DNA from: a virus
DNA length: 64,000 nt
Virus record (IMG/VR): IMGVR_UViG_3300025093_000002
Span: 28,089-92,088 of that record
Direction: 5' to 3' (one strand)
Made by a program: the position numbers and the translations under genes. Positions 6,162 through 59,988 of this stretch are shown here, piece by piece. The notes beneath the pieces were generated by a model that worked only from the letters and a program-made list of their open reading frames with translations, did no database searches and was not told where the DNA came from. The stretch's first letter is position 1; each line of letters opens with the position of its first letter.

Positions 6162-6596
6162 TCATGCGGCGTTCTGCTCAAAATCTTCCGATTGAACCGA
6201 ACCAGACCGATCGACGCCGCTTTCGAAGATCCACTGCCGAAATTGAGAAGGCTCAACGTGGGACTTGATGAACTCAAGCAAAGCGCGATCACGAGCGGAT
6301 TGCAGTTCTTCCCGCCGCGCGCGCTCAATGCGTCCGCGCTTATGGGTGATGAGTTGCAGCGCCGTTCTCTTATATTTGAGCGAACGCCTGGCACGAGCAG
6401 GCCACGTCGGGTCCGAGAAACGGCAGACGCCGAGAGCCTTCAACTCCAGCTCGTACTCAATCTCTGCGACGGCCGACTGGAGATAGGCATAGGCGTCGTT
6501 GCAGTCTTCGACTGTTTCGATTTCATCGACAGACCAACCAGCCGCGATTTCGATGTCGGGGATGAAGATGTCCTCGAGGTGCTGGCTCTCGCTCAT
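6162..6596 (-). CDS. Hypothetical phage protein
   Basis: Coupled ORF; occupies the slot held by the N6A/N4C methyltransferase in B. Confidence 0.6.
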   Translation of the reverse strand: MSESQHLEDIFIPDIEIAAGWSVDEIETVEDCNDAYAYLQSAVAEIEYELELKALGVCRFSDPTWPARARRSLKYKRTALQLITHKRGRIERARREELQSARDRALLEFIKSHVEPSQFRQWIFESGVDRSGSVQSEDFEQNAA

Positions 6597-7123
6597 GCTG
6601 CGGCTTCCCCTTGGCGTGTTGCGCGGGCGGGGTCCTGCTCATGAAGCGAGCTGATGTAATCCGGCAGTTTCCCGTCGCGAAGCAGGCGGCGGAACATCAC
6701 GCGGGCGGCGAGGCCATACCCGGCATGGGTCTGCGCTTTCGCGGAAATCTCGAACGTCTGGAGCGAGCCGTATCCGAGCTCGGCGTATGCACGTTCACGC
6801 CCGCCGAACTCTTCGACAAGCTCATCGAACGGGAGCTTGGGCGACGGGCCTTCGTCCTTCGGCAACCAAAACGGCTGCCGGCGCGATGCGTCGATGATGA
6901 ACTGCCAGATGGGCGGCGAGGACTTGAACCAACCACGCTCAATGCGGATCGGATCGAAGCACTGGAGAAGAATGGCTTCTCCGAGGAAAGCGCCCTTCAA
7001 CTGCAACATCATTTCGATGCCACCGGGAAGCCAAGTCCCCAAGGTCCGCTTGCGGGCATTCACGTCGGCAGATGCGCCGATGCGGATAGGTCCGCCATTC
7101 GTGGGCTGGGCGACGTAAATCAT
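6593..7123 (-). CDS. GIY-YIG/T5orf172-like protein
   Basis: MIYVAQ...PIRIGAS...R...E...GWF pattern. Confidence 0.55.
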   Translation of the reverse strand: MIYVAQPTNGGPIRIGASADVNARKRTLGTWLPGGIEMMLQLKGAFLGEAILLQCFDPIRIERGWFKSSPPIWQFIIDASRRQPFWLPKDEGPSPKLPFDELVEEFGGRERAYAELGYGSLQTFEISAKAQTHAGYGLAARVMFRRLLRDGKLPDYISSLHEQDPARATRQGEAAA

Positions 7124-8113: not shown

Positions 8114-8209
8114 TTGCGTCTAATTTTTAGACGGTAGATATACGGTCCTTATCTTTCTTCTCTAAGAGTTAGATATAGAGACCATATATCTTGCGTCTAA
8201 TTTTTAGAC
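8114..8209. repeat. Iteron-like repeats flanking an AT-rich tract (putative ori A)
   Basis: TTGCGTCTAATTTTTAGAC at 8114-8132 and 8191-8209, each internally palindromic. Confidence 0.65.
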
Positions 8210-8589
8210 TCAATGGTTTTGCGAGGGCGCTTCCCGTTCGGCGGGTTCTTTCGCACTTTGGCGACGAACGGCTTCGTCCGCTCTCTCACCCACTTCTCAT
8301 CCCCCATGAACGGCATCGTGTAGATCTGGCTCTCCGCGTGATAGCGGGTGATGAGCAGGAAGCCGGCTTCCTCAAGCTCGACTAGCGCGGTCGCCAGCGT
8401 CGTGCGGCTCATGTGCGCGTGCTTCGTCAACCAGGTGTAGCTGGGCTTCAACTCTTCCCTCGCCTCTGGCTGAAAGAACGTCGCGAATAGCAGGCCGACG
8501 CGCACCGCGCTCGCGCCCACTTCATTGCACCGCGCGAGCTCGTAGAGCCAATCGACGCGGTTCTGGTTCCATCGCTGCACATAATCCAT
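8197..8589 (-). CDS. Winged-HTH protein resembling the N-terminus of phage replication initiators
   Basis: PSYTWLTKHAHMSRTTLATALVELEEAGFL; convergent with cI. Confidence 0.7.
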   Translation of the reverse strand: MDYVQRWNQNRVDWLYELARCNEVGASAVRVGLLFATFFQPEAREELKPSYTWLTKHAHMSRTTLATALVELEEAGFLLITRYHAESQIYTMPFMGDEKWVRERTKPFVAKVRKNPPNGKRPRKTIESKN

Positions 8590-38683: not shown

Positions 38684-38695
38684 GGTTCAGCTCCT

Positions 38696-39583
38696 TTACG
38701 AGGTCGGAAGGGCGGCGGTGTCGTCCACCGTGCCTTCAATGACGCCAGTGTCATCGATCAGTTTCGATCCACCAGACATCATATGGTTGACGAAGTGCGC
38801 GGCGCGGTCGCCGTGCCAAGTGATGTCCGCAGACACGGCCTGGTTCTGCGCCGCGTTGCCCGCATGGGCGCCGGTGGCGTAGCCAACGGACATCTTGTGC
38901 CATGCGAACACCTTGGCCGTGGCAGTGCCGCGACCGGGGCAGCCGCTATGGACCGTCCACAGAACGCCGAGCCAGTTCTTGAACCGACCGATCGGCGCGC
39001 CTTCCGAGAAAGGAAGACCCGTTGACCCGACATAGTCGGCGCTGGCGAAAGACTCGACCTTCATCGCGAAAGCCCATGCCTTCGGCGTCAATGCGCCGTA
39101 GCGCATTCCGTCGTTCGGCACGTCATTGGCGTCGAGGGCCTGCACCATGTTGAGAAGCGCGTTCTCGATGGCAGCCTTCGACGTGACGGTCCAGGCAATC
39201 GCCGTCTGCGCGGTGGCGTCCAGTTCGGTGAAGATCTGGTCGTCAACCTTGCGGCCGAGAGCCGCAGCGCCGCCCATGGCGATCGCCATGCGCTCATCGA
39301 TGTTGGTCTTGGCCTCGTCCAGCTTGTCGACCCAATCGCCGGCGTAGAAGTCGGCGAGCGTGCATTCAAGCGCGGTGTGGTCCTGGTTCATCGGCGTGAT
39401 GACGCCGTGACGGGCCTTGGTCGTCGCCGCACCCTTGCCGACCTTCTGGAAGGTGGTGGACTTGCCGACAACGTTGTCCTTCACGCGGACGGTCGGACGC
39501 AGGAAGCTGCCCTGCCTCTGGAATACCGCGTGGGTTTCCTGTTCGTATTGCCGCACAAAGGCGGCATCAATGCTCGTGCTCAT
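38696..39583 (-). CDS. Major capsid protein
   Basis: MSTSIDAAFVRQY...FQ..GS..R; ALGRKVD; strong AAGGAG RBS. Confidence 0.88.
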   Translation of the reverse strand: MSTSIDAAFVRQYEQETHAVFQRQGSFLRPTVRVKDNVVGKSTTFQKVGKGAATTKARHGVITPMNQDHTALECTLADFYAGDWVDKLDEAKTNIDERMAIAMGGAAALGRKVDDQIFTELDATAQTAIAWTVTSKAAIENALLNMVQALDANDVPNDGMRYGALTPKAWAFAMKVESFASADYVGSTGLPFSEGAPIGRFKNWLGVLWTVHSGCPGRGTATAKVFAWHKMSVGYATGAHAGNAAQNQAVSADITWHGDRAAHFVNHMMSGGSKLIDDTGVIEGTVDDTAALPTS

Positions 39584-48990: not shown

Positions 48991-49437
48991 TTATCGACAG
49001 CACCACGATATACAACCTTTTTCATCAATTGTGCTTCGGACTGTTCCGTGATCCCGCATCGCGCGCAACGCCTTGCTCACACGCTTCGTGAGTTCGGACA
49101 GGTACTTCCTGTCCCGCGCGTCGTTACCTTGCATGGTAACAATCTCTCTCGCGATATCGCGGCTTGATACAGGCGCTGTAGCGGTGCGCAATTCGGCATA
49201 GATGGCTTTCGATAGCTCGCCACGTCCGAATAGCACTTCGCGCTTCTGGCGTGGCATGGCCGCGTCCAGATCGCCGCTGTAGCCCAGCACGTTCAACGTG
49301 CGGTCCATCGCGCCTATGTCGTTCTTTATCTCGGCAAGCCTGTCACGAATGCGCTCGGCTTCGTTGAACAGGTCGGCGCGCTTCTTAAGCAAGCCGGAAA
49401 TGGTGTGATCGAAAGTCTCTGTGCGGGCTGGTCTCAT
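48991..49437 (-). CDS. Coiled-coil/wHTH passenger protein typical of IS1595-type elements
   Basis: ISGLLKKRADL...LFGRGEL; adjacent to the TIR. Confidence 0.65.
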   Translation of the reverse strand: MRPARTETFDHTISGLLKKRADLFNEAERIRDRLAEIKNDIGAMDRTLNVLGYSGDLDAAMPRQKREVLFGRGELSKAIYAELRTATAPVSSRDIAREIVTMQGNDARDRKYLSELTKRVSKALRAMRDHGTVRSTIDEKGCISWCCR

Positions 49438-49721
49438 CGATATGGCTCATTCACAATGATAATGCGCCATATCATAATGAAATCAGCGCCTTAGCGCCTA
49501 CAAGAAGTTGGTGCTTTTGCTACATAAGGCCGCAATTTTGATATCGCCCGAGACATTGCCCCAAGGCTTCAGCCCTCAATTGTGGAAACTGCAACGGCTA
49601 GGAACGGGAAGGCTTACGACATTCTGAAGGCCGCGAAGGTCTAGCCAGCTAATGGCTGCTTGTGTTGGGGGTTAGCGGTTTGGTGGTGAGATTGAGCCCG
49701 AGACGCTGACAGATGCGGCGA

Positions 49722-50115
49722 AGCGACGAATATGCCGTCTTGCGCTTGCGTGGCGGGGCTTTCGAGGGACCGCGAAGACCGGGGCCTGTCCTTGCTGGCT
49801 TTCCATCCTTCGCCACGGCTCTCGCCTCTCTGTTGCCCTTGTGGGGTGGAACGGGTCGGACAGGACGGCCTTCGCTCCATCAAGGATACCACGTCAATTC
49901 GTGGTTCGTCGCTGTTCTGCTTTGCCCTGATAGGGGCTGTGAAAGGTGCAAGCTACTGGCTAGGACCGACATGCGGGTCAGTTTTCGCTCGCCACGAGGA
50001 ACGGCCAGGAACGAACCCCAACCTTCACGACATTGCTGCCGCCTCGCATGTAGTTCCCACCAGTGTCCCGCTAGAAGCTAAGATGCTCGGCTGTGTGTCG
50101 GGTGGTGGGGTTCGT
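49722..50115 (-). ncRNA. Candidate structured RNA(s) in the late leader
   Basis: Long-range stems 49722-49730/49905-49913 and 50011-50020/50106-50115; no convincing ORF. Confidence 0.4.
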
Positions 50116-50123
50116 GAAATTCG

Positions 50124-50264
50124 TTACCGGATCGTCCACACCCAAGGACCGCATTTGAACGTCTTGCCCTTGATAGCGTAGTAACGGCGAAGCTTCTGTT
50201 CGGCTGCGAAAGCCTGCTCTTGAGCGTGTCGGCTGAAGAAGCCAAACATTCTTCGAAACCTCAT
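50124..50264 (-). CDS. Small ORF (46 aa) after the late promoter
   Basis: MRFRRMFGFFSRHAQEQ...WVWTIR. Confidence 0.35.
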   Translation of the reverse strand: MRFRRMFGFFSRHAQEQAFAAEQKLRRYYAIKGKTFKCGPWVWTIR

Positions 50265-50284
50265 AGGCGCAATGCGCCACATAC

Positions 50285-50317
50285 AAATCAACTATGGGTG
50301 TTCGCGCTGAAAGTCAA
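50285..50317 (-). promoter_or_regulatory. pR'-like late promoter
   Basis: TTGACT -35 at 50312-50317 directly after the Q-like gene. Confidence 0.5.
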
Positions 50318-50324
50318 CGGCCGA

Positions 50325-50822
50325 TTACCCTCTATTCCCAAGGTAATGGAAATGATGCGCACAGGCCACGAGGTCCGCATTCAGCACGGGTGCCATGTCC
50401 CGTTCCGCTATTCCAAACCTGTCGGCAATCTCGCGTGACGTGCGGCCTTCGACGCAGTAGGCCACGAGACGAACCGTCACCATCTTGCCGAGGTCGCGCA
50501 TGGCGCTGCGGAGGTCGTCCAGCGCCACGACACGGCCATCAGGCATACCCTTCCATCCGCCATTACTGACGAACTCCATGCCCGGGGAATTGGCCGCTGA
50601 CGTACCCGCCTTCTCCCACAGGCCGGCGAAGTGGACACCTGCGTGATAGAGCGCCGTATTCGCCTTGTCGCGGTTGTAGCGCCACTCAAAGCTACCCGGC
50701 AGGCCTCGAACCTGTCGCTGCTCTTGACGCGTCGTGGATATCCGAACGCGGGTTTCCCACGTCTCTGCCCCGCTGTAGCCGGGGTGACGTTCCTGCGCTC
50801 GCTTCTTTGCCGCTTTGCCCAT
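50325..50822 (-). CDS. Putative late-gene activator/antiterminator
   Basis: C-terminal HTH (CVEGRTSREIA); last early gene before the late region. Confidence 0.6.
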   Translation of the reverse strand: MGKAAKKRAQERHPGYSGAETWETRVRISTTRQEQRQVRGLPGSFEWRYNRDKANTALYHAGVHFAGLWEKAGTSAANSPGMEFVSNGGWKGMPDGRVVALDDLRSAMRDLGKMVTVRLVAYCVEGRTSREIADRFGIAERDMAPVLNADLVACAHHFHYLGNRG

Positions 50823-50864
50823 CTTGGTTCGCCGCCCTCTTCTTTGCCGCCGCTCTTTGCCTGA

Positions 50865-51350
50865 TTACCGTGCAGGCCGTAGATATCGCCCGTCTGCCGC
50901 CCGTCGCTTCGCATGAGCCCTAACGCCGTGCATCACCGTCGTGTGGTCCTTGCCGCCAAGCCGATGACCGACCTGGGGCAGCGAGAACCGCGTCTGGCGG
51001 ATGGCCCAATACATGATTGCGTGACGGGCCTTCACGACCTGCTTGTTGCGCCGCTCGGATATGATTTCGGCCGGATGGACGCCGAAAACTTTGCAGATCC
51101 GGGCCATGATGATGGCGATACGCTGGTTCTGCGCGCCATAGCTGAAGCGCTGGAGAACCGCGCTGGCTTGCTGCGCTTCCATAGCTGCCATCTTGCGACG
51201 GGCCGCGATGCGCTCCATCTCCGCGACTTCCGAGCGCATCATGACGACGGCCGGCAGCTCGCGCTTGGCGACTGGCTCCAATTCGCGCTGCGGGTTCGAT
51301 ACCTTGAACCGCGCATTCGCCATGGTCTTGGATGAACTGACTGCGAACAT
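50865..51350 (-). CDS. DnaA C-terminal-like HTH protein (copy B)
   Basis: Near-identical to 100-585. Confidence 0.8.
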   Translation of the reverse strand: MFAVSSSKTMANARFKVSNPQRELEPVAKRELPAVVMMRSEVAEMERIAARRKMAAMEAQQASAVLQRFSYGAQNQRIAIIMARICKVFGVHPAEIISERRNKQVVKARHAIMYWAIRQTRFSLPQVGHRLGGKDHTTVMHGVRAHAKRRAADGRYLRPAR

Positions 51351-51352
51351 AC

Positions 51353-51769
51353 TCAATGCCTCTGTGCTGCGAGCGAGATGCCGTACTCTTCCGCCACGCT
51401 CTGGATGGTTCTTTTGCCCGCGAGGGCGTCGGCTAGTGCCTGCACCTTTTCGGGCGGGCACGGTGGGCTGTCGTCGGTTTCTGTCTTGTGCTCGATGCGC
51501 GGCCGGCGCGAATATTCGAGCGCCTTCTGCATGTCCCGGCACACGCTCACGAAGCGAGGAACAGCCGGCGCTTTGTCCAGGCTCTGCCCCTTAACGTCGC
51601 CAGCAGTAAACGCTTGGCAGGCGCGAACAATCGCTTCGTCCTCAAGTCCCTGTACGTCGCGCTCTATCGTGGCCATAAGCACGTCGTGGTCAGTGCCTGG
51701 AAATTGCGGGAAGGCGTTGAAACAGGCCGCTATCTCTGCTCTGGTCCTGTCTTGCATGGGATACCTCAA
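51353..51769 (-). CDS. Putative helicase loader/inhibitor-like protein
   Basis: AIVRACQAF..GDV.G...AP; same slot as 591-959. Confidence 0.5.
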   Translation of the reverse strand: MRYPMQDRTRAEIAACFNAFPQFPGTDHDVLMATIERDVQGLEDEAIVRACQAFTAGDVKGQSLDKAPAVPRFVSVCRDMQKALEYSRRPRIEHKTETDDSPPCPPEKVQALADALAGKRTIQSVAEEYGISLAAQRH

Positions 51770-52052
51770 TCATGCGCTGTGCGGCTCCGGTGATGCCGGG
51801 GCGGTGTGTTCCATTGGTGCGGGCAATCCATTCGGGCTTTACGGCCGTCCAGCCGCGAAGCATCATCTCGTCAGCCGCAGCTACAGGGTTCGGGCAGGCA
51901 GCGAGGTTCTTCGCCAGCATCCCGGCAGCACGAGGCGTCAGGACGAACCGCTTGCCCATGCGCTTGCGGTAGTCGATGATTTCGAGGGCGGTTTCCTCGT
52001 CTACGGCTGTCATAAGGGCGTCGAGGATGGCGTGTTTCTCAGCGAGGCCCAT
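51690..52052 (-). CDS. Stand-alone replication-initiator C-terminal domain (B type)
   Basis: IIDYRK...LTPRAA...CPNP.AAADEM..RGW...KPEW; starts MGLAE like the A counterpart. Confidence 0.6.
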   Translation of the reverse strand: MGLAEKHAILDALMTAVDEETALEIIDYRKRMGKRFVLTPRAAGMLAKNLAACPNPVAAADEMMLRGWTAVKPEWIARTNGTHRPGITGAAQRMIEVSHARQDQSRDSGLFQRLPAISRH

Positions 52053-52336
52053 TACTCGCCTCCCTCAGAGAGAGCGGCGTCGATCATGGCGCAAAACACA
52101 GCCCCCAGAACTGCCCCGTGCCGGTTCTCGGGCGCATGGAGTGCCACCCTCCCCGCTTCCAGCATCTCGTCCGTTACTTGGTCTTCATCGCGCATCGCCT
52201 TGATAGCTGCGCGGGCACTTGCCCGATACAAATGCCACACAGGCGTCGAGTCCTCATCGTTAGAGACGGCGTCTGGGTGCATCCCGTCTTCAAGGCTCAA
52301 TGCCTTTGCCACGCGCTCTATCATCGTCTCAGCCAT
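52052..52336 (-). CDS. Hypothetical phage protein
   Basis: MIERVAKAL...ARAAIKAMR pattern. Confidence 0.6.
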   Translation of the reverse strand: MAETMIERVAKALSLEDGMHPDAVSNDEDSTPVWHLYRASARAAIKAMRDEDQVTDEMLEAGRVALHAPENRHGAVLGAVFCAMIDAALSEGGE

Positions 52337-52670
52337 TGGTAGGCTCTCCCTTGTCTTGTGAGGTGCGGGCGACGTCATCGATATGGCCGGAGCCGCCGCA
52401 GTATGGGCACGCGAGGTCAGCATCATTGCCGTGCAGGTTCTCGCCTCGGTTCAGGAAGCCGTCGCGCTTGCCGCTGTCGATTTCCTCGATAAGCTGGCGA
52501 ACATTGATTTGCGGCTTGCGCGGGCGCATTGCGTTGAGGGCAGCACGCGCCAACCGCGTCTCAAGGCGCTCGTTGCCTTTAAGGTGATGGGCCAAAGCGC
52601 CGAAGTTCTTGCCTTCGTCCAGAATGGCTTTCCCCACACGCTCTAGTTCTTCGACGCTATATGCGCTCAT
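52329..52670 (-). CDS. Hypothetical protein (fusion of modules seen at 2315-2874)
   Basis: Shared motifs with two prophage A genes. Confidence 0.6.
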   Translation of the reverse strand: MSAYSVEELERVGKAILDEGKNFGALAHHLKGNERLETRLARAALNAMRPRKPQINVRQLIEEIDSGKRDGFLNRGENLHGNDADLACPYCGGSGHIDDVARTSQDKGEPTNG

Positions 52671-52809
52671 GCTTGCTCCTTCTTCGCCTTCGCGGCGTAA
52701 GCTAGGCTCGCCTGCTCTAGGACGGATAGGTTGGTGGTCTGCGTCTCGACTTCATGCGCCGGACGCTTGCTGCCATGGTCGCGAAGCCACTGCGCTGAGG
52801 CGGGGAACG

Positions 52810-53448
52810 TCATGCGGCCCTCGCTTCACGTGCCGATCGCGCCATGGAAATCAGAAGCTGGCGAAACTCCGGCGGCGTGCCGATGCGTGGCGAGCTGTCA
52901 GTGCCACCACCGCGCGCGCCGACTTCCCCGAGGCGTTTGGCACGCTGGAGCCCCATGCGTTCGACAACGGCCGGGTCCAGGTTGGCGCGACGAAAGCCCC
53001 ATCGCAGGGTGGGAAGTTCGCACCCGAAGGCATAGAGAAGCGTCGGCTTGCGAGCATAGTGACCGTACTGGCCCTGCTCGACACAACACGTCCATCCGCC
53101 AAGGAAGTCGGCCATTATCCAGCCGCCGGCACGATCCGGCGTCGTCAGCCCGAAGTGCGGCCACGCAAAGCTGCCCCATGGGTGTTCAATGACACCGCCC
53201 CATGTTCGAACGGCATTCAACGCCGCCTCGAAGCACCCGCCGTCATCGCCCTTCTTCTTGCGCTCTCCTGTGCGCTTGATATGCAGCGGTTGGCCAGCCC
53301 ACAGCTTGCCCCATCGAGGGCACGGCGGGTGAGCGACAACAGGGTGCGGGCCGGCATACTTTCGAGCGTCCCTTGCCTCGTCCCATGGGTCCACGCCAGA
53401 CAAGCCGTAGTATGCGCCGTCTGTCTCGACATAAAGGGCGGCAATCAT
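52810..53448 (-). CDS. Phage cytosine-methyltransferase-like protein
   Basis: VVAHPPC and IEHP motifs. Confidence 0.6.
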   Translation of the reverse strand: MIAALYVETDGAYYGLSGVDPWDEARDARKYAGPHPVVAHPPCPRWGKLWAGQPLHIKRTGERKKKGDDGGCFEAALNAVRTWGGVIEHPWGSFAWPHFGLTTPDRAGGWIMADFLGGWTCCVEQGQYGHYARKPTLLYAFGCELPTLRWGFRRANLDPAVVERMGLQRAKRLGEVGARGGGTDSSPRIGTPPEFRQLLISMARSAREARAA

Positions 53449-53807
53449 GCGGCCACCTGCTCAATGCTCTGGATAGCCACGACACAGGGCGGGCCATCGT
53501 CATGCCATTCGTATGTGAGCTTGCGGACGTAGCGATTGCTGTCGTCCTCGATGAGGCTGGCCTTGACCAAGATGTCACCAACCGCCTTGTCTAGATTTCC
53601 TGCGTCCCTCGCCCGCTTGTCCGGCGCGACGAGGCGCACATAGACAGTCACGCGCCCCAGGACGGGCTTCACGCGTTGCGCGGCAATCATCCACAGCGCT
53701 TCCTTCTGCCATGCCTTGTAGGCCGGCGTAGGGACGCGGCCCCTGCCCTTCACGTTGGTGAAGCAGGCCGATAGCGTTGGCGGGAAAGGAAGCTCGACGC
53801 GGGTCAT
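53445..53807 (-). CDS. rusA: RusA-family Holliday junction resolvase
   Basis: LPFPPT...RDAGNLDKAVGDIL...IEDDS. Confidence 0.85.
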   Translation of the reverse strand: MTRVELPFPPTLSACFTNVKGRGRVPTPAYKAWQKEALWMIAAQRVKPVLGRVTVYVRLVAPDKRARDAGNLDKAVGDILVKASLIEDDSNRYVRKLTYEWHDDGPPCVVAIQSIEQVAA

Positions 53808-53936
53808 CGCAGCACCCACACGCCCAGCGCTGACAGTGCAGCGAGACCAATCCAGATAGCGAATGCCGCGCCTGCCTCGCTGCGCTCCGCCTTGAATATG
53901 AGCGCGCCACCTAGAGCCTGGAACCGCCCGCCCAGC

Positions 53937-54311
53937 TTAACGAGCGCCCTGCCCGCTTCGACCAGCGTCCAATGCGCTAAGCCGCGCCAGAAGGACCGCG
54001 TTGGCTTGTTGGGCGACGAATAATTCGTGTTTGGCACGGGCCAATCCTTCCTCGTTGTGACGCTCGACCGCCTCGCGGATGGCGTCTGCAATGTCTGCCG
54101 GGACGCGCTTCACCTTCTTCCAGCGAAGCCGCTCGATAGTGGTTGCCGACAGCTTCGCCGCACGAGCTGCCCGCATGATTTGCTCCTTTGCGGAGCCGTT
54201 CCCACCAAGAAACCGGACGGCCGTAGCCATCTCGTCTTGGATTAGTTGAGCCCTAAGCATTTCCGCCTCGCGCCGTGACTTTTCCGGCTTGCGCCGTGGG
54301 TTTGTCGCCAT
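53937..54311 (-). CDS. CII-like/HTH regulator
   Basis: AARAAKLSATTIERLRW; same slot as 3228-3623. Confidence 0.45.
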   Translation of the reverse strand: MATNPRRKPEKSRREAEMLRAQLIQDEMATAVRFLGGNGSAKEQIMRAARAAKLSATTIERLRWKKVKRVPADIADAIREAVERHNEEGLARAKHELFVAQQANAVLLARLSALDAGRSGQGAR

Positions 54312-54654
54312 CTGGAATCCCTGCCGTGTTCAATTGCTCCTGCAACGCAAGAGCAACCACGGAAGGAAATGACGTGACTGCCTTCGGACGAGACGCGCGA
54401 GACCTGCCTGCAAGCGATGACGCGCGCCGTTCCGGTGAAATGGCTGCCGGGTGCCTTCAAACGCCGGCTGTAATTCTGGACTGGCATTACGCCGCCAGCC
54501 CCTTTGCGACTGAATTGCTCGCGTCTCGCCGCGCCGAGCATGGGGAGAGCGAAGCCGATGAGTTCCCCGAGTGGCTTTGCTCTCCCCGTCCTGCCCAGGT
54601 TCGCGGCTGGGAGGCCGCAAACTGCAATAGGCGTCTGTGGGTGGTGCGCTGATG

Positions 54655-55377
54655 TCATGCCGCCACCACCCTGTCGCGCTCGATGAAAGCCGCGACCAAC
54701 TCCGACGCTACTCGGGGGTCGATGGCGTTCCCATACCCGCGCATTCGTCCCACTCGGTCGGGAAGCCCATGAGCCACGCGACCCAAGGCGGGTTCGGAGG
54801 GCCACCGAGTTGCGTACTCAGCGATGTCCCGCCTTGCGGGAATTTCGACTTCCTCCAGCCCGTTTCGCTCGCCAGCGGCGTAGGAAACAAACCAGAGTCG
54901 TTCTCTCTTATGCTTGGCGCGGACACTGCTAGCCGGGGCAATGAGCGCTGCGCAGGCGTAGTCACACGACTCCAGGTCTCCGGCCACAATGTCCCACCAG
55001 CCTCGACCCGCCGCTGTTGGAACCTGTTCGCCCATGACGACTGCAGGCCGGCACTCTCGGATGAGTTCGAACCAAGCTGGCCACAAATGCTTATCGGAAG
55101 CCTCGCCTTCAGACCTGCCGGCTTTGCTCCATGGCTGACATGGGCAACTCCCTGTCCAGACGGGACGTTCGTCTCGCCACCCAGCCAGTCGAAGAGCGTA
55201 GGACCATCCACCGATGCCCGCGAAGAAATGGCATTGCGTGTAGCCTCTGAGGTCATCTGGTCGGACATCGACAATGCTCCGCTCGTCTACGTCGCCTGGC
55301 GCGATATGGCCGGCGCTGATGAGATTGCGCAGCCATTGCGCAGCGAATGGGTCGAGCTCGTTGTAGTAAGCGGCCAT
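54655..55377 (-). CDS. C5 cytosine methyltransferase, alpha chain
   Basis: FFAGIGG, SCPCQP, GEQV, RERLW and YGNAI motifs. Confidence 0.88.
   Translation of the reverse strand: MAAYYNELDPFAAQWLRNLISAGHIAPGDVDERSIVDVRPDDLRGYTQCHFFAGIGGWSYALRLAGWRDERPVWTGSCPCQPWSKAGRSEGEASDKHLWPAWFELIRECRPAVVMGEQVPTAAGRGWWDIVAGDLESCDYACAALIAPASSVRAKHKRERLWFVSYAAGERNGLEEVEIPARRDIAEYATRWPSEPALGRVAHGLPDRVGRMRGYGNAIDPRVASELVAAFIERDRVVAA
54708..55274 (-). CDS. Nested alternative-frame methyltransferase beta chain (true start uncertain)
   Basis: LFPTPLAS...NPPWVAWLMGFPTEW, motif IX-like. Confidence 0.65.
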   Translation of the reverse strand: MSMSDQMTSEATRNAISSRASVDGPTLFDWLGGETNVPSGQGVAHVSHGAKPAGLKARLPISICGQLGSNSSESAGLQSSWANRFQQRRVEAGGTLWPETWSRVTTPAQRSLPRLAVSAPSIRENDSGLFPTPLASETGWRKSKFPQGGTSLSTQLGGPPNPPWVAWLMGFPTEWDECAGMGTPSTPE

Positions 55378-55380
55378 GGC

Positions 55381-55629
55381 TCAGACAGCCCCCGCCCTAC
55401 GCGCCACGTCTTCAGGGCTGCGCATGGTGCAGCGGACGGCGTGGTATTCATCGCCGCTGAGTTCTATGTAGCCGGGACGCGCGCTCTGACGGGGCTCGCT
55501 GAACATGCCCTTCCAGACAGTGCCCGCGCAGAAACCGGCATTGAACAGAAGCCAGCCGCCAATGAGCGCCATGCCGAGGACTTCGTAGCCAGTGAAAGAG
55601 CCGTTGAGGTAGGTGGTGATGGTTTCCAT
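55381..55629 (-). CDS. Small membrane protein
   Basis: C-terminus shared with 4612-4830. Confidence 0.6.
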   Translation of the reverse strand: METITTYLNGSFTGYEVLGMALIGGWLLFNAGFCAGTVWKGMFSEPRQSARPGYIELSGDEYHAVRCTMRSPEDVARRAGAV

Positions 55630-55632
55630 GGC

Positions 55633-55812
55633 CTATGCGTCCAGGTTGCGAACTGCGTCGAAGCGCTCGTCAGCCAGAACCTTCGCCATCGCCTCAACAG
55701 CGGCGTTGCGGTGGTCCTGCATGTAATGGCGCAGATGGGTGCCGAGCGGCCTGAGAACGTCGTTCAGAGCCTCTTCGGCGCGCTTGGCGCGGCTGATGCG
55801 TTCGTCGCTCAT
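55633..55812 (-). CDS. Hypothetical phage protein
   Basis: MSDER start; GGAG RBS. Confidence 0.5.
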   Translation of the reverse strand: MSDERISRAKRAEEALNDVLRPLGTHLRHYMQDHRNAAVEAMAKVLADERFDAVRNLDA

Positions 55813-56231
55813 AGCGTGGCTCCGTGAAGGCGGGTCGCGGCATGGGCTTGAGAGGGGTTTGCGTAGGAAACTGCCCGCCAAGCCGCTGGCGATGGAGTGT
55901 GTCGGCAGTCAAAAGAGCGCGTCGCGGGACGCCCATCGCTATTGGTCGCCGTGCGGGCTTTCCGTTTCAGTTGCCCTGCCAAGAACAAGTTGAGGTTTTT
56001 GATAGGCTCACTGGCCGCACGGCTGGCCAAGGAAGAACAGTGAGCAGGGAAGAACGCGCGGGTGCGCTCCTTGGCGATGTGAAAGGGTGCTGGCCGAGCC
56101 GGGAGGACAACCCGGCCAGCGTCGTCGTCGGCTTGGGAGGAAGCGACGGACGATTGCTGAATAAAGGCACCAGCATTTGCGCTGGTGAGGTGGCGGCGGT
56201 TGCCGCTGGGAGGAGGAGTGTGCGGGGCCAT

Positions 56232-56534
56232 TTATTTGGCCTCCGAGATTTCTGCGAGAATGGCGTCGGAAATAGCCTTGCGACGTTGACGCCACAGGCC
56301 AACATTGCCCTTGCGGTGCATCAGGGGTGGATGCGCTATCTCAGCCGCGCGCTTCATGCCTTCTGCGAAACCGGTGAAATGGGCATTCGCCAAATCAGTA
56401 GCCATAATGTCTACGAGACGGTCGTAATCCTTCATCGTCCTAAAGACGGCGGTGCTTCGGGAAATGGCGAGACGAGCATCGTCGCGAAATTCACGGTACG
56501 CTTCCGCCCTGTCTTTGATTGGGGTGCCGGTCAT
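56232..56534 (-). CDS. Hypothetical phage protein
   Basis: Homologous to 5535-5831. Confidence 0.6.
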   Translation of the reverse strand: MTGTPIKDRAEAYREFRDDARLAISRSTAVFRTMKDYDRLVDIMATDLANAHFTGFAEGMKRAAEIAHPPLMHRKGNVGLWRQRRKAISDAILAEISEAK

Positions 56535-56881
56535 GCGCCGTCCCTCTCTTGGGAGGTGGGGGTGTGAGACGGTGGGCTGGGGAGAGGCATCCAGTGCGTT
56601 GGGTTCGCAGCTTCCTCGAACTCACTCCCGACGCGGAACCACCAGTCGGGCCAGGTCAGCGTCTTTCCGGACCATTCGTCGTAGTCGCTGTCAGACCCAC
56701 CCCAGACGAGAACATGTGCGCCGTCCTGAACCCTCCCCAGAGCCTCAACCCAGCATCCGTAGTCGGTAAGACGGTCAGACTGTTCGTCGTGGTACGGGTT
56801 TGCCTCGTGAACGCACCATCCAACGATATGCGTCCCATCCTTCGGCGCTGTCTCAATCGGCTGCCAGTCGTGCGCGCTCAT
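56531..56881 (-). CDS. DUF551-like protein
   Basis: WQPIETAPKDG...PTHWMPLP. Confidence 0.75.
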   Translation of the reverse strand: MSAHDWQPIETAPKDGTHIVGWCVHEANPYHDEQSDRLTDYGCWVEALGRVQDGAHVLVWGGSDSDYDEWSGKTLTWPDWWFRVGSEFEEAANPTHWMPLPSPPSHTPTSQERDGA

Positions 56882-56915
56882 TGGTTTGCTCCAGTAGTGG
56901 TGGGGAGGGAAATGC

Positions 56916-57701
56916 TCATGCGGCGTCCTCTCCAAAAAGGGGCTCTTGAACGGGATGCTTGACCGGGGGCGCGACGAACATGTCGGGCTGCGCATAGGCT
57001 TTGCGGATGCGTTCGCAGGCGATTTCGAAGTATCTCTCGTCAATCTCGATGCCGATGAAGCTGCGGCCTGTCTTCGCGCACGCCACGCCTGTCGACCCGC
57101 TGCCCATGAAGGGGTCAAGGATCGTTCCCGGCACCTTCCTGCAGAGGTTCTTCATCAAGTCGACGGGCTTCTCAGTCGGGTGAAGGCGACCGTTCTTCGC
57201 CATGCTCTGGACCGGGGGGCAGTAGAGAACGGAGCCGCTGTCCCGCGTCCCAATGAAGCCCTTACCCAGCACGTAGATTTCTTCGTGGTCTGGCTTCCAC
57301 GGGAGAGAGAGGTCGCCCATCCCAAGAGCGCCGCCCTTGTTCCATATGAGAACCATCTTGGTCCCCTTTGGACGGTTCACCTTCCACGATCCAAACAACA
57401 GAATGGGGATATTGCCTGCCGCCCAAGCAACTACGGCATCGCGCGACATGAGGTTTTCGTCGGAATTGATCGTTCGCGCTGCACCCCAAAGTGCGTCAGT
57501 CGCATAGCCGCTTTTGTACGCAATTCCATAAGGGGGGTCGCTTACAACGCTGCCAACAATCTGACCGCCTTGAAAGTGGCGCTCGGTCATTTCGGCATAG
57601 GCATCAAGGGCTCGGAGTGTCGGCAGCACATCAAGGCAATCGCCCAGAATGAGCCTGCAATCGCCTATCGTGACCTCGCGCTTGATGGGGTTGGCGCTCA
57701 T
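56916..57701 (-). CDS. N6-adenine/N4-cytosine DNA methyltransferase (beta class)
   Basis: DPPY, HPTEKP and LDPFMGSGSTG. Confidence 0.9.
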   Translation of the reverse strand: MSANPIKREVTIGDCRLILGDCLDVLPTLRALDAYAEMTERHFQGGQIVGSVVSDPPYGIAYKSGYATDALWGAARTINSDENLMSRDAVVAWAAGNIPILLFGSWKVNRPKGTKMVLIWNKGGALGMGDLSLPWKPDHEEIYVLGKGFIGTRDSGSVLYCPPVQSMAKNGRLHPTEKPVDLMKNLCRKVPGTILDPFMGSGSTGVACAKTGRSFIGIEIDERYFEIACERIRKAYAQPDMFVAPPVKHPVQEPLFGEDAA

Positions 57702-58078
57702 GCTGCGGCTTCCCCTTGGCGTGTTGCGCGGGCGATGTATCGCGGAGACGCCGCCGTATCGGATGGGTCTGGGATCGCACCGAAGGCGCTGGCTACGTCT
57801 TCGCCAGCCTTGACACGCTCGATGCGGGCCATGAGGTCGGGCGTCGGGAAGAACCACTCGCTATGACTGCGAGAGTCCGCATATTTCCGATGCAGGAAGC
57901 GCTCAAGCTGGTGAGTGCCCTCGCCTTCTGCGATCAGTTCCAACGGGAATGGCGACCACTGCGAGACGGCATTCAACCGATCTTCTGGAAACGACGAGCA
58001 GCCAATCTTGATTGGGCTCATCATGCCGCGAGGGCGCATGAAATAGACGACCTTGAACCTGTCTGCCCATTCGCTCAT
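57698..58078 (-). CDS. GIY-YIG/T5orf172-like protein
   Basis: VYF...IKIGCS..PE.R...E..LH......SEWF. Confidence 0.7.
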   Translation of the reverse strand: MSEWADRFKVVYFMRPRGMMSPIKIGCSSFPEDRLNAVSQWSPFPLELIAEGEGTHQLERFLHRKYADSRSHSEWFFPTPDLMARIERVKAGEDVASAFGAIPDPSDTAASPRYIARATRQGEAAA

Positions 58079-58305
58079 GACGCCACCTTCTGGTCGTCGC
58101 CCGCGCGGTGTTCGCGCTGCTGCTCAAGCCAGTCGTTGAACTTCACCTTCCCGCCCGTAGCCGCTTCGATGGCCGCGATGATTTCCGGCTTCGGAAAGCG
58201 GTCGTTGTTGAGGTATCGGTGCATTGCGGGCTGGCTAACGCCGACTTTTTCAGCGAATGCCGTGGCCGTAATCTTCCGGGCGGTGAGGAAATCAATGAGC
58301 TTCAT
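58075..58305 (-). CDS. cro: Cro-like repressor (prophage B)
   Basis: FAEKVGVSQPAMHRY...IEAATGGKV. Confidence 0.85.
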   Translation of the reverse strand: MKLIDFLTARKITATAFAEKVGVSQPAMHRYLNNDRFPKPEIIAAIEAATGGKVKFNDWLEQQREHRAGDDQKVAS

Positions 58306-58309
58306 AACC

Positions 58310-58365
58310 GCCATCATACCGATTTGGTATCGACGTTCAAGCGCTAATTTATACCGTTATGGTTT
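58310..58365. promoter_or_regulatory. OR-like operators of B and cro promoter
   Basis: ATACC-N5-GGTAT at 58316-58330, variant at 58351-58365; minus-strand TTGAAC-16-TATGAT. Confidence 0.75.
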
Positions 58366-58401
58366 TTGTGCGCTGCGGGCCGTGGAATTATGATCCCGGA
58401 C

Positions 58402-59046
58402 ATGAACCAGCTACGGGTATTGCGCGAGAAAGCGGGACTGTCGCAGTCGGCCTTGGCCGAGCGCGCCGGCACGTCTCAACCGCAAATCCGTCGCCTGGAA
58501 GCCAGCCAGCGAAAATTAACCAAGCAGTGGGCCGAACGGTTAGCGCCTCATTTACAGGCCAGCGCCCAAGACCTACTCTTCTCGGATTCTGAAGGGACGA
58601 CACGAGAGGTTATCGGCCTGCCCGTTCTCGGCAAGAGCAGGGCGGGCGACTGGCTGGATATTTCGATTATGGATGATTGGCACGAGCCGGAAGTAATTCA
58701 CGTCGCGCGCGATCCTCGTTACCCGCACGCAAAGCAGTATGCTCTCAGGGCCGAGGGCGATTCCATGTCGGAGCTTTTCCCGGATGGATGCTATGTGACG
58801 GTCGTCAATTTTGCCGAGAGCGGTTTGGGCTTTCGACCTGGCATGGTCGTCCATGTCGAGCAGCGAATGGGCGGCACCTCGCTCGTCGAGACGACCATCA
58901 AGCAAATCAGCGACGACCTGAAATGGCTCCTGCCCCGGAGCAAAAACCCCGTTCACAAGCCTTTGCCGATCGAAGGCAGTGCCGCGACCGAAATTGAGGT
59001 CAAAGGCATCGTGACGGGCAAGTGGGAACCAATCAGTTTCGATTGA
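58402..59046 (+). CDS. cI: CI-like repressor, HTH plus S24 (prophage B)
   Basis: LSQSALAERAGTSQPQIRRLE; EGDSM; TIKQ. Confidence 0.9.
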   Translation: MNQLRVLREKAGLSQSALAERAGTSQPQIRRLEASQRKLTKQWAERLAPHLQASAQDLLFSDSEGTTREVIGLPVLGKSRAGDWLDISIMDDWHEPEVIHVARDPRYPHAKQYALRAEGDSMSELFPDGCYVTVVNFAESGLGFRPGMVVHVEQRMGGTSLVETTIKQISDDLKWLLPRSKNPVHKPLPIEGSAATEIEVKGIVTGKWEPISFD

Positions 59047-59172
59047 ACGGCTAGAGATACAACCTTCTATCTCAGAGCCACTACACCTAAGAGCTAAACC
59101 TTTTAGGAATTTGCCTTTACCTATTCGGCGGCAACATCTTGCCGGGGTAGGTATGCAACATCTTGCCGGGGT
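59047..59172. repeat. Iteron-like repeats plus AT-rich tract (putative ori B)
   Basis: GCAACATCTTGCCGGGGT at 59131-59148 and 59155-59172. Confidence 0.65.
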
Positions 59173-59525
59173 CACATAAACGGGGCGTGCAGGAAGTAGC
59201 AGCTTTGCTTCCCCGGTTCTTCGACAACGATTAGCACGTTTCGGGCTCGCAGCTCGGCAATTCCATAGCGAACGGTTCGCACGTTCTTGCCCATGCGATC
59301 CGCAATCCCCTTCACTGAATACCAGCAGCATTTGTCCTCGCCGTTCATCCGGCGTGACAGCCAGTAGCCGACGCGAAAAGCGCGGTCGCTGAGGTCTGGC
59401 ATGGTCACCAGATACTCAGCCCACTTCCTCCGATTTTCATAGAAGGCGGCGGCGTCATCGCCGTTGTCGTTCGCTTGCCGAATCGCTGGCAGGATTTTCG
59501 GTCGAAAAGATTTTTTTGCGCTCAT
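59172..59525 (-). CDS. Winged-HTH protein resembling an initiator N-terminus
   Basis: LSDRAFRV...CWYSVKGIADRMGKNVRTVRYGIAEL. Confidence 0.75.
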   Translation of the reverse strand: MSAKKSFRPKILPAIRQANDNGDDAAAFYENRRKWAEYLVTMPDLSDRAFRVGYWLSRRMNGEDKCCWYSVKGIADRMGKNVRTVRYGIAELRARNVLIVVEEPGKQSCYFLHAPFM

Positions 59526-59535
59526 GCCCTCATCT

Positions 59536-59577
59536 ATACCGATTTGGTATTGACGCGCAATGCCAAGATGGTATGTT
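59536..59577 (+). promoter_or_regulatory. OL-like operators and pL-like promoter of B
   Basis: ATACCGATTTGGTAT at 59536-59550, ATGCCAAGATGGTAT at 59560-59574; TTGACG-16-TATGTT. Confidence 0.75.
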
Positions 59578-59640
59578 CGTTCTCACACCCCCGGTGCAGA
59601 CGGTTCGCCTGAGCCCGCACCACAAACCGGAGACGAGACG

Positions 59641-59988
59641 ATGGCAATCAGCCCGAATGGATACACCGACGATTTCGGTCCGAACGTTTCGGCCATCCTC
59701 GTTGGCGGCACCCGCGTCATTCGTGGCCCCATCCCGGCGCGGGTTCGCAAGGAACTCGCTGCGGCTGTGAAAGCTGGCGTTCTTGGCCGCCTCGCGAAGG
59801 ACGGCCTCAAGCCGGAAATCTTCTTCCACCCGAGCCACAAGAATGGGGCCATCGAGCGCCAGAAGAGCGAGGCACTTTATGCGGCAAAGTGCATCGCCGG
59901 CGTCGTCGCCAGCCCCGCCGATGTGCGCGCTGGCATCGAGGCTCAGGGCGGGGATGTCCTCGCCTATGCCCTTAACGAGCGCGCCTAA
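59641..59988 (+). CDS. Hypothetical early protein
   Basis: GGAG RBS; first ORF after pL. Confidence 0.65.
   Translation: MAISPNGYTDDFGPNVSAILVGGTRVIRGPIPARVRKELAAAVKAGVLGRLAKDGLKPEIFFHPSHKNGAIERQKSEALYAAKCIAGVVASPADVRAGIEAQGGDVLAYALNERA

Follow-up and report, generated by a model that had tools for sequence, protein, structure and literature searches.

Within the 64,000-nucleotide stretch of viral DNA analysed here (the window, bases 28089-92088 of the 92,088-bp IMG/VR virus record IMGVR_UViG_3300025093_000002, which has direct terminal repeats), two lambdoid early regions, A and B, are recognised. The present analysis concerns a segment of region B in which a small winged helix-turn-helix (wHTH) gene, wHTH_B, converges on the cI-type repressor gene and ends at two 18-bp repeats that adjoin an AT-rich block (Table 1). 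This arrangement had been described in a reading made from the letters alone (the sequence-only reading), and the coordinates, the wHTH domain (HTH_36 in Pfam) and the repeat count were all confirmed. The last T of the gene-proximal copy of GCAACATCTTGCCGGGGT is also the first base of the trinucleotide TCA at 59172-59174, i.e., the minus-strand stop codon TGA of wHTH_B. Matches to GCAACATCTTGCCGGGGT with up to three mismatches are expected by chance 0.05 times per window, and none of 100 shuffles gave three. The spacer between wHTH_B and cI has 125 nt. The tract at 59046-59130 has approximately 60-65% A+T versus 39% for the window, and among the 50-bp duplexes of the 64 kb only four are less stable than one in this tract.

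The search for other kinds of signal in this spacer was negative. No sigma-70 promoter was found in the AT block in a scan of positions 58000-59800, a comparison of the whole window with Rfam gave no structured RNA at the gathering threshold, local matches being noise at E>1, and neither a consensus RNA fold nor covarying pairs were found for the intergenic block across 19 loci. A terminator was considered and rejected, as the candidate is a single weak hairpin (59086-59107) that lacks a T-run and is not conserved in the relatives.

The product of wHTH_B scores above the gathering threshold of Pfam HTH_36 (PF13730; 35.4 bits, cut-off 25), and its six PHROG matches are all to replication-initiator families, always in the N-terminal DNA-binding part. 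For example, it aligns to positions 44-120 of the 346 in phrog_678 (“replication initiation O-like”) and to positions 39-104 of the 383 in phrog_270, while the O-like families phrog_678, phrog_391 and phrog_345 match it with E-values of 1.9e-7 to 6e-4, at N-terminal positions only. The AlphaFold2 model, with a mean predicted local distance difference test score (pLDDT) of 87, presents an ordinary winged-HTH fold. A search of 5.8 billion proteins recovered 61 homologues, from sources that include Aurantimonas and Fulvimarina, all of them stand-alone proteins of 80-131 amino acids (aa), mostly with HTH_36, and the C-terminus of the family is conserved right to the stop codon. No fused or longer relatives were found in a word-based search restricted to longer proteins, which is weak evidence.

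Given the gene order, with the 3' end of cI on one side of wHTH_B and the left operator (OL) on the other, wHTH_B lies inside the immunity region. The promoter scan of 58000-59800 returned only two sigma-70-like sites, one pR-like and overlapping the first operator palindrome, the other pL-like and overlapping the second, and the operon that runs rightward beyond OL comprises a Gp157-like gene, RecT, SSB and NinB. The sequence upstream of wHTH_B suggests that its expression is probably repressor-controlled, given that OL falls in the 16-nt spacer of the putative promoter. The same promoter-like arrangement, again with OL in a 16-nt spacer and without a Shine-Dalgarno sequence, is found in phage Mae-JY35, and many relatives share operator-like words between the sequence preceding the HTH gene and the repressor/cro intergenic region. 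A leaderless wHTH_B mRNA may be proposed for this phage and Mae-JY35 only, and tentatively, because the test of the -10 offset across the relatives (see below) was not significant.

On the cro side, the annotated open reading frame (ORF) of cro shares its first two ATG codons with the -10 hexamer TATGAT of the pR-like promoter (58318-58313, minus strand), which overlaps them. Translation of cro may therefore really begin at the third ATG (58305-58303, MKLIDF...), and the cro mRNA may be leaderless. A gene with a T5orf172/MUG113 (GIY-YIG-like) domain lies right after cro, at 57698-58078 and 6593-7123 of the window and also in several relatives.

Table 1. Features of immunity region B, the cro-side genes and the prophage A counterpart, in window coordinates.
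Feature	Position	Strand	Details
Imperfect inverted repeat with conserved GCTCTGAG box	59049-59079		box at 59071-59079, plus strand reads CTCAGAGCC
AT-rich block, candidate DNA-unwinding element	59098-59129		two 13-14-mers, minus strand GAATAGGTAAAG and CAAATTCCTAAAAG
Second repeat (iteron)	59131-59148		perfect GCAACATCTTGCCGGGGT; 24-bp period; internal dyad GCAA-N4-TTGC (GCAA-CATC-TTGC)
Gene-proximal repeat (iteron)	59155-59172		perfect 18-mer GCAACATCTTGCCGGGGT; overlaps the stop codon by 1 nt
wHTH_B, stand-alone winged-helix protein, candidate origin-binding protein	59172-59525	-	117 aa; HTH_36, PHROG, AlphaFold2
Putative wHTH_B promoter	59533-59560	-	TTGCGC, 16 nt containing OL, TATAGA, 7 nt to ATG
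Left operator OL	59536-59550		palindrome ATACCGATTTGGTAT, same 15-mer as OR
Candidate pL promoter	59550-59577		TTGACG-16-TATGTT; overlaps the OL palindrome
cI-type repressor (LexA-like)	58390-59046	+	HTH_31/HTH_3 and Peptidase_S24 domains
Right operator OR	58316-58330		15-bp palindrome ATACCGATTTGGTAT, identical to OL
cro-like HTH gene	58075-58317	-	pR-like promoter and OR overlap the gene start
Cdom_B, candidate adaptor to helicase loader	51690-52052	-	phrog_678 “replication initiation O-like”, positions 221-296 of 346
Loader-like gene	51353-51757	-	overlaps the Cdom_B end; homologous to prophage A gene 591-~989
DnaA domain IV-only protein	50865-51350	-	161 aa; Bac_DnaA_C 73.4 bits (cut-off 31.5)
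wHTH_A (8197-8589) and palindromic repeats (8191-8209, 8114-8132)	8114-8589	-	repeats flank a conserved AT-rich core

Conservation of the gene, the repeats and the AT-rich block

The genomic contexts of the relatives were read from IMG/VR, three genomes and GenBank phages, and 34 related loci were compared, from three bacterial genomes (Fulvimarina, Aureimonas and Rhizobium) and 31 IMG/VR contigs, three of the 34 ending at or just past the stop codon. The layout is kept in all 31 loci that have DNA past the stop codon, i.e., the repeats at the stop, the AT-rich 13-14-mers, some 20 variable bases and the GCTCTGAG box, which is nearly invariant in the alignment. There are two repeats per locus (three in L001), of approximately 18-22 bp, with an internal dyad and a 24-bp period (23 bp in L032), while the AT block is made up of two or three 13-14-mer copies of the consensus GAATnTnTAAAG, with invariant columns. 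The stop codon and the AT block are 44-51 nt apart, except for 34 nt in L034 and 70 nt where the third repeat is present (L001). The claim of the sequence-only reading that such a layout reflects selection rather than decay is sustained by the 61 stand-alone homologues of about 102-117 aa, their conserved C-terminus and the repeats at the stop codon in 31 of 31 loci. Decay to pseudogenes was rejected, given that both stand-alone families, the wHTH and the C-terminal domain (Cdom), keep conserved lengths and ends.

The mean identity of the repeats is 0.83 within a locus versus 0.53 between loci, and that of the AT block between loci is 0.75. In these alignments, then, the repeats evolve in concert within each locus and diverge between loci, with the AT block conserved. 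When the loci are sorted by repeat type, this type co-varies with the recognition helix and the wing of the wHTH protein. A helix of the form S-E/Q-D-K-V-I/L-R-A with an H-R-K-P/S-N wing accompanies the repeat GGGTCGCAAATCTGCGGGTC, a helix of the form x-R-Y/T-V-R/Q-Y with a K-G-K wing accompanies CCCCGGCAAGATCGTGC, and each of four single variants has its own repeat, which is the pattern expected for a protein and its cognate sites.

The form of the gene with its repeats and AT block (hereafter the cassette) is unchanged by whichever gene comes next, be it the repressor, same-strand lipoprotein or membrane-protein genes, or others, which makes it unlikely that the cassette serves the 3' end of the repressor gene in particular. 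In some relatives, the slot that separates the cassette from the repressor is a hot spot of extra genes (L009 10625-11520, L029 10434-12174, L006 from ~10440 onwards), occupied by genes for a lipoprotein, a small membrane protein, a 442-aa protein and two unknown products (one of which matches phrog_5737), and these genes look like prophage accessory or defence genes.

Among the GenBank phages, Mae-JY35 (PP438426) encodes a wHTH protein with 85% identity and has the same operator, repeats and AT block, and Rhizobium phage RHph_N3_2 encodes a protein with 38% identity, followed by short repeats and a recognisable TTGCTCTGAG box. Both records annotate the gene as a transcriptional regulator or DNA-binding protein, and no description of such an arrangement was found in the literature. 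The record PP438426.1 (“Microcystis phage Mae-JY35”, L119) has the early-gene order of the window and is assigned to the cyanobacterium Microcystis aeruginosa, while the other relatives are all from Hyphomicrobiales (Aurantimonas, Fulvimarina, Aureimonas, Rhizobium and Nitratireductor); the assignment to Microcystis may stem from a heterotroph present in a non-axenic culture.

A shared layout of regions A and B with different sequences had also been claimed, and an analogous organization is indeed found in region A of the window and in six A-family loci (L042-L047). The wHTH_A protein scores 15.4 bits against HTH_36, which is below the gathering threshold of 25, and matches the B-family profile at E 9e-5, as a distant relative; its family comprises 15 stand-alone proteins, one of them from Nitratireductor. 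A single-sequence locus search with wHTH_A returned nothing, and the A-family loci were found by an alignment-based search. In the window and the six loci, the stop codon lies in or beside a palindromic site, which is followed 73-81 bp beyond by an exact copy in all of the six loci but L045, where the second copy is diverged, and the core between the palindromes is composed of AGATATATGGTC, an AT-rich stretch and then GACCATATATCT. The least stable duplex of the whole window falls in the prophage A equivalent of the spacer (8138). Given these variable palindromes at the gene end and the conserved AT-rich core, the general design recurs with different sequences. Taken together, a layout of this kind beside the repressor gene is present in this phage and about 40 relatives.

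Stand-alone C-terminal domains and the putative helicase-delivery genes

The sequence-only reading had also pointed to a stand-alone C-terminal-type domain some 7 kb from wHTH_B, and the profile match of Cdom_B upholds this. Within one single-chain family, phrog_678, wHTH_B corresponds to the N-terminal part and Cdom_B to the C-terminal part, and in prophage A, wHTH_A and Cdom_A lie at positions 63-108 and 170-258 of phrog_270 (its N-terminal and middle parts). A total of 581 relatives of Cdom_B were found among 1.84 billion representatives. Those closest to it are stand-alone proteins of 107-144 aa; in many others, the domain forms the C-terminus of proteins of 190-380 aa with DUF1376, HTH_36, HNH or unknown N-termini. 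Its AlphaFold2 model (pLDDT 81) is a helical bundle for which Foldseek gave no PDB match, the best VIA-align hit being an unrelated helical protein (Z 5.8), with the DnaD domain at Z 3.9, within noise. The stand-alone proteins of the family share a conserved “...P-x-h-x...R-H” C-terminus after a variable linker (alignment A5), and in the window the Cdom_B tail is encoded at 51690-51769, where the loader-like ORF overlaps it by 80 nt. Both stand-alone C-terminal-type genes of the window (starts at 1284 and 52052) open with MGLAE, as had been noted, and a recent shared DNA or recombination junction was rejected as the source of this motif because the codons differ. An AT-rich intergenic stretch (~70% A+T, 1285-1330) directly upstream of Cdom_A may contain an internal promoter; prophage B has no counterpart of it, because Cdom_B abuts the preceding gene.

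The identification of a loader-like gene beside Cdom_B fared less well. The product of 51353-51757 has no Pfam, PHROG or NCBIfam match, including to G39P (PF11417) and lambda P (PF06992). The one lead that weakly favours the label is a language-model similarity in the ESM Atlas, of 0.89 to G39P_N clusters and 0.88 to lambda P clusters, and most members of these clusters do not carry the domains. Next to it, the product of 50865-51350 has an alignment to TIGR00362 that is confined to positions 317-423 and scores 71.5 bits, below the cut-off of 343.9, without a match to the AAA+ domain III, and its gene is nearly identical to prophage A gene 100-~585 and is conserved both in relatives with Cdom-type modules and in those with DnaB-type modules. 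Near-matches to the DnaA box in the window number four, unclustered, against 4.7 expected, so the target of this DnaA-domain-IV protein may be the host origin or host DnaA-regulated genes. No other convincing iteron cluster was found in the cro-side replication module (49400-53500).

With regard to the pairing of the two domains, neither the 92-kb record nor any of 31 related records, of which 16 have a completeness of at least 90%, was found to contain a full-length initiator, and thus none accompanies a cI-adjacent HTH gene, a combination that the sequence-only reading had named as evidence against its view. Each related record has one clear N-terminal-type match, on the repressor side (two have an extra weak one), which is contiguous with a C-terminal-type match in 0 of the 31. 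Apart from the cassette protein, no initiator-like DNA-binding protein was found in the window's own record and these relatives. Among the 16 records that are at least 90% complete, the C-terminal-domain gene is present 5-7 kb away in seven and absent from nine, and in most cassette loci that lack this gene the early module is a different one, composed of genes for a RuvC-like resolvase, a phrog_26995 protein and a phage DnaB helicase among others. B-family wHTH genes are found with A-type C-terminal domains (L004, L012, L016, L022, L027 and L032) or with B-type domains (L019 and L021), which gives no hint of partner specificity. In the complete provirus G026 the combination is the reverse, i.e., a stand-alone B-type C-terminal domain and a loader-like gene, with no HTH_36 match and no gene convergent on the repressor. 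The co-occurrence of the cassette with an HTH-less C-terminal-domain gene, which had been put forward for testing, is thus not obligatory, and of the “split initiator” the complementary homology stands (phrog_678 for B, phrog_270 for A) while the obligate pair does not. The term therefore describes homology, the functional unit being better described as an autonomous cassette of HTH gene and repeats, together with exchangeable helicase-delivery modules.

A proposed repressor-controlled initiator-origin cassette and its alternatives

On the sequence evidence, the account that we favour, with somewhat better than even confidence, is that positions 59049-59560 constitute a self-contained, repressor-controlled initiator-origin cassette of the lambda O/ori-lambda type, which combines with different helicase-delivery modules. 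When the repressor leaves OL, the predicted leftward promoter with OL in its spacer would fire, and the winged-helix protein would be made, possibly from a leaderless mRNA. This protein would then bind, probably as dimers, to the two dyad repeats at its own stop codon, as their co-variation and position suggest, and transcription into the repeats, together with the bound protein, would help to melt the adjacent AT-rich 13-14-mers, by analogy with lambda and the iteron plasmids. The helicase would be delivered by whichever module is present in the cro-side operon, which in this window would be the separate O-C-terminal-like protein (51690-52052) and the loader-like protein, presumably bringing the host DnaB, and in about half of the relatives a phage-encoded DnaB. 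Recognition and recruitment would thus be the work of separate genes some 7 kb apart, with the recognition half and the origin travelling with the immunity region.

A broader proposal, which we hold more tentatively and at somewhat below an even chance, is that a broad group of temperate phages of the Hyphomicrobiales (Rhizobiales) has uncoupled recognition from recruitment and moved it into the immunity region, so that the left operator switches the origin directly, specificity is inherited with the repressor type and the helicase-delivery genes are exchanged independently. If this is true, replication specificity belongs to the immunity cassette and is physically linked to the immunity type, and heteroimmune co-resident prophages such as A and B could not fire each other's origins, which bears on how tandem or co-resident prophages avoid cross-activation. 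The replication genes of most temperate phages of the Alphaproteobacteria are unannotated, and depositors call genes of the wHTH_B type transcriptional regulators or hypothetical proteins. If the cassette is the origin, it shows where these phages start replication and provides a compact (~0.5 kb), type-specific and repressor-controlled replicon for the Rhizobiales, as well as a natural lambda-O-like initiator in the form of separate recognition and recruitment proteins. Given that one recognition family occurs naturally with three delivery modules, the handover from an origin-bound winged-helix protein to different loaders would be open to experiment.

Several points weigh against the cassette as an origin. 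The best PDB neighbours of the wHTH_B model are the MarR, ArsR and CodY regulators (Foldseek E 3e-4 to 1e-2, template-modelling score ~0.45-0.53), although the winged-HTH fold is generic and therefore cannot tell an initiator from a regulator, and the annotated records label proteins of the family as transcriptional regulators. There are two repeats here versus four in lambda, and the strongly conserved AT block and GCTCTGAG box could be sites for something besides unwinding. The cro-side DnaA-domain-IV protein could be the true origin binder, at an unrecognised site. None of 72,556 plasmids carries a relative of wHTH_B, so autonomous replication of the cassette would be without natural precedent. 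The co-variation of helix and repeat ignores phylogeny, and the gene and its repeats are physically linked. The proposed wHTH_B promoter is weak by consensus, and a -10-like hexamer that ends 4-9 nt ahead of the start codon is present in 11 of 24 loci, a frequency that control offsets equal.

A stricter form of the split, in which the winged-helix and C-terminal-domain proteins are obligate subunits that must associate non-covalently for the origin to fire, is rather unlikely. It would account for the complementary matches to the same single-chain families, for the conserved ends of both stand-alone families, for the overlap of the loader-like gene with the C-terminal-domain gene and for the joint presence of both genes twice in the window and in seven of the 16 near-complete relatives, but the other nine have the cassette without that gene, mostly with DnaB in its stead, and in provirus G026 it is the cassette that is absent, while the C-terminal domain and the loader-like gene are there. 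The B-family HTH also pairs with C-terminal domains of either type, the relatives of these domains are fused to unrelated N-termini (DUF1376, HNH), and the word-based search, weak evidence as it is, returned no fused form of wHTH_B.

The other two alternatives remove the origin from the cassette. In one, which we regard as improbable, wHTH_B is a lysis-lysogeny transcription factor, the repeats act as a roadblock or terminator between convergent genes or control a promoter in the AT block, and replication starts elsewhere. The likeness of the fold to MarR/ArsR-type regulators, the depositors' annotation and the place of the gene beside the operators of the immunity region all speak for this, as do three relatives in which a same-strand gene after the AT block could be driven from it. 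However, the sequence profiles point to initiator families only, the sites are at the 3' end of the gene rather than in a promoter, with no sigma-70-like promoter in the block, and tandem same-orientation repeats in fixed register with repeated AT-rich 13-mers are the anatomy of an origin; moreover, the cassette is constant whatever gene comes next, and no other candidate for the origin or the initiator was found in the complete genomes. In the other alternative, the prophage expresses an initiator DNA-binding domain as a decoy that occupies the origins of superinfecting relatives with the same repeats and blocks their replication. Lambdoid prophages keep rexAB and sieB between the repressor and the left operator, and the position of wHTH_B between these is the lambdoid site of exclusion and defence genes, a place for which BstA provides a further example (PMC8585504). 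An initiator-type DNA-binding domain without an effector domain would also suit a decoy. We nevertheless see very little probability in this explanation, given that the only plausible promoter has the operator in its spacer and should thus be repressed in the lysogen, that the gene is universal and syntenic in the group, unlike the sporadic accessory genes of prophages, and that a decoy would not need a conserved AT block beside the repeats.

Relation to known origins and initiators

The closest parallel to the proposed cassette is lambda O, in which, as in wHTH_B, a winged-helix part is followed by 18-bp dyad tandem repeats with short spacers and an AT-rich tract, and repressor-controlled transcription enters the origin. 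The cassette thus has the anatomy of the initial third of lambda gene O together with ori-lambda. The lambda O gene starts at 38686, and its iterons thus begin after some 116 codons, while wHTH_B has 117; lambdoid origins combine type-specific repeats with a conserved AT-rich part beside them. In ori-lambda, which lies within O at 39034-39160, four 18-bp iterons adjoin an AT-rich sequence of 38 bp, and transcription from pR is needed in cis (PMC3349717). Unlike lambda O, the wHTH protein terminates at the first repeat, with a stop codon that is conserved, and the origin here would thus be intergenic rather than inside the ORF, and the C-terminal domain, which is part of a single polypeptide in lambda O, is a separate gene some 7 kb away or is absent. 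There are also two or three repeats here rather than four, and the cassette is on the far side of cI, by OL and divergent from pL, and not in the pR operon after cro and cII; the similarity of its protein to the O-like families is at the profile level only. The two types of delivery module, i.e., a C-terminal-type domain with a loader and a phage DnaB-type helicase, have their parallel in the alternative pairs of lambda O with P and P22 gene 18 with the helicase gene 12.

The origins of iteron plasmids (RK2 oriV with TrfA, P1 oriR with RepA, and pPS10 RepA) are similar in that iterons bound by winged-helix proteins lie beside repeated AT-rich 13-mers, and the 13-mers of the cassette recall the unwinding elements of oriC and of these plasmids. 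The plasmid Rep proteins, such as TrfA and RepE, make sequence-specific contacts with the 13-mers, and contacts of this kind would, by analogy, explain the conservation of the AT block per protein family. Unlike the Rep proteins, which have two winged-helix domains, the candidate initiator is one small protein, and there are no DnaA boxes above chance.

In the satellite origins of SaPI and PLE, where Rep or RepA acts with iterons, the origin is likewise 3' of, or adjacent to, the initiator gene, and the repeats lie on either side of an AT-rich core or next to it, an arrangement especially like that of prophage A. The satellite initiators carry a helicase or RepA_N domain, unlike the bare winged helix of ~100 aa in the immunity region of a temperate phage that is found here. 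Finally, the G38P, G39P and G40P proteins of SPP1 provide a system in which the origin binder, the loader and the helicase are separate polypeptides, with the weak G39P_N lead of the loader-like gene pointing the same way; unlike in SPP1, the genes are not adjacent here, and wHTH_B has no sequence relation to G38P.

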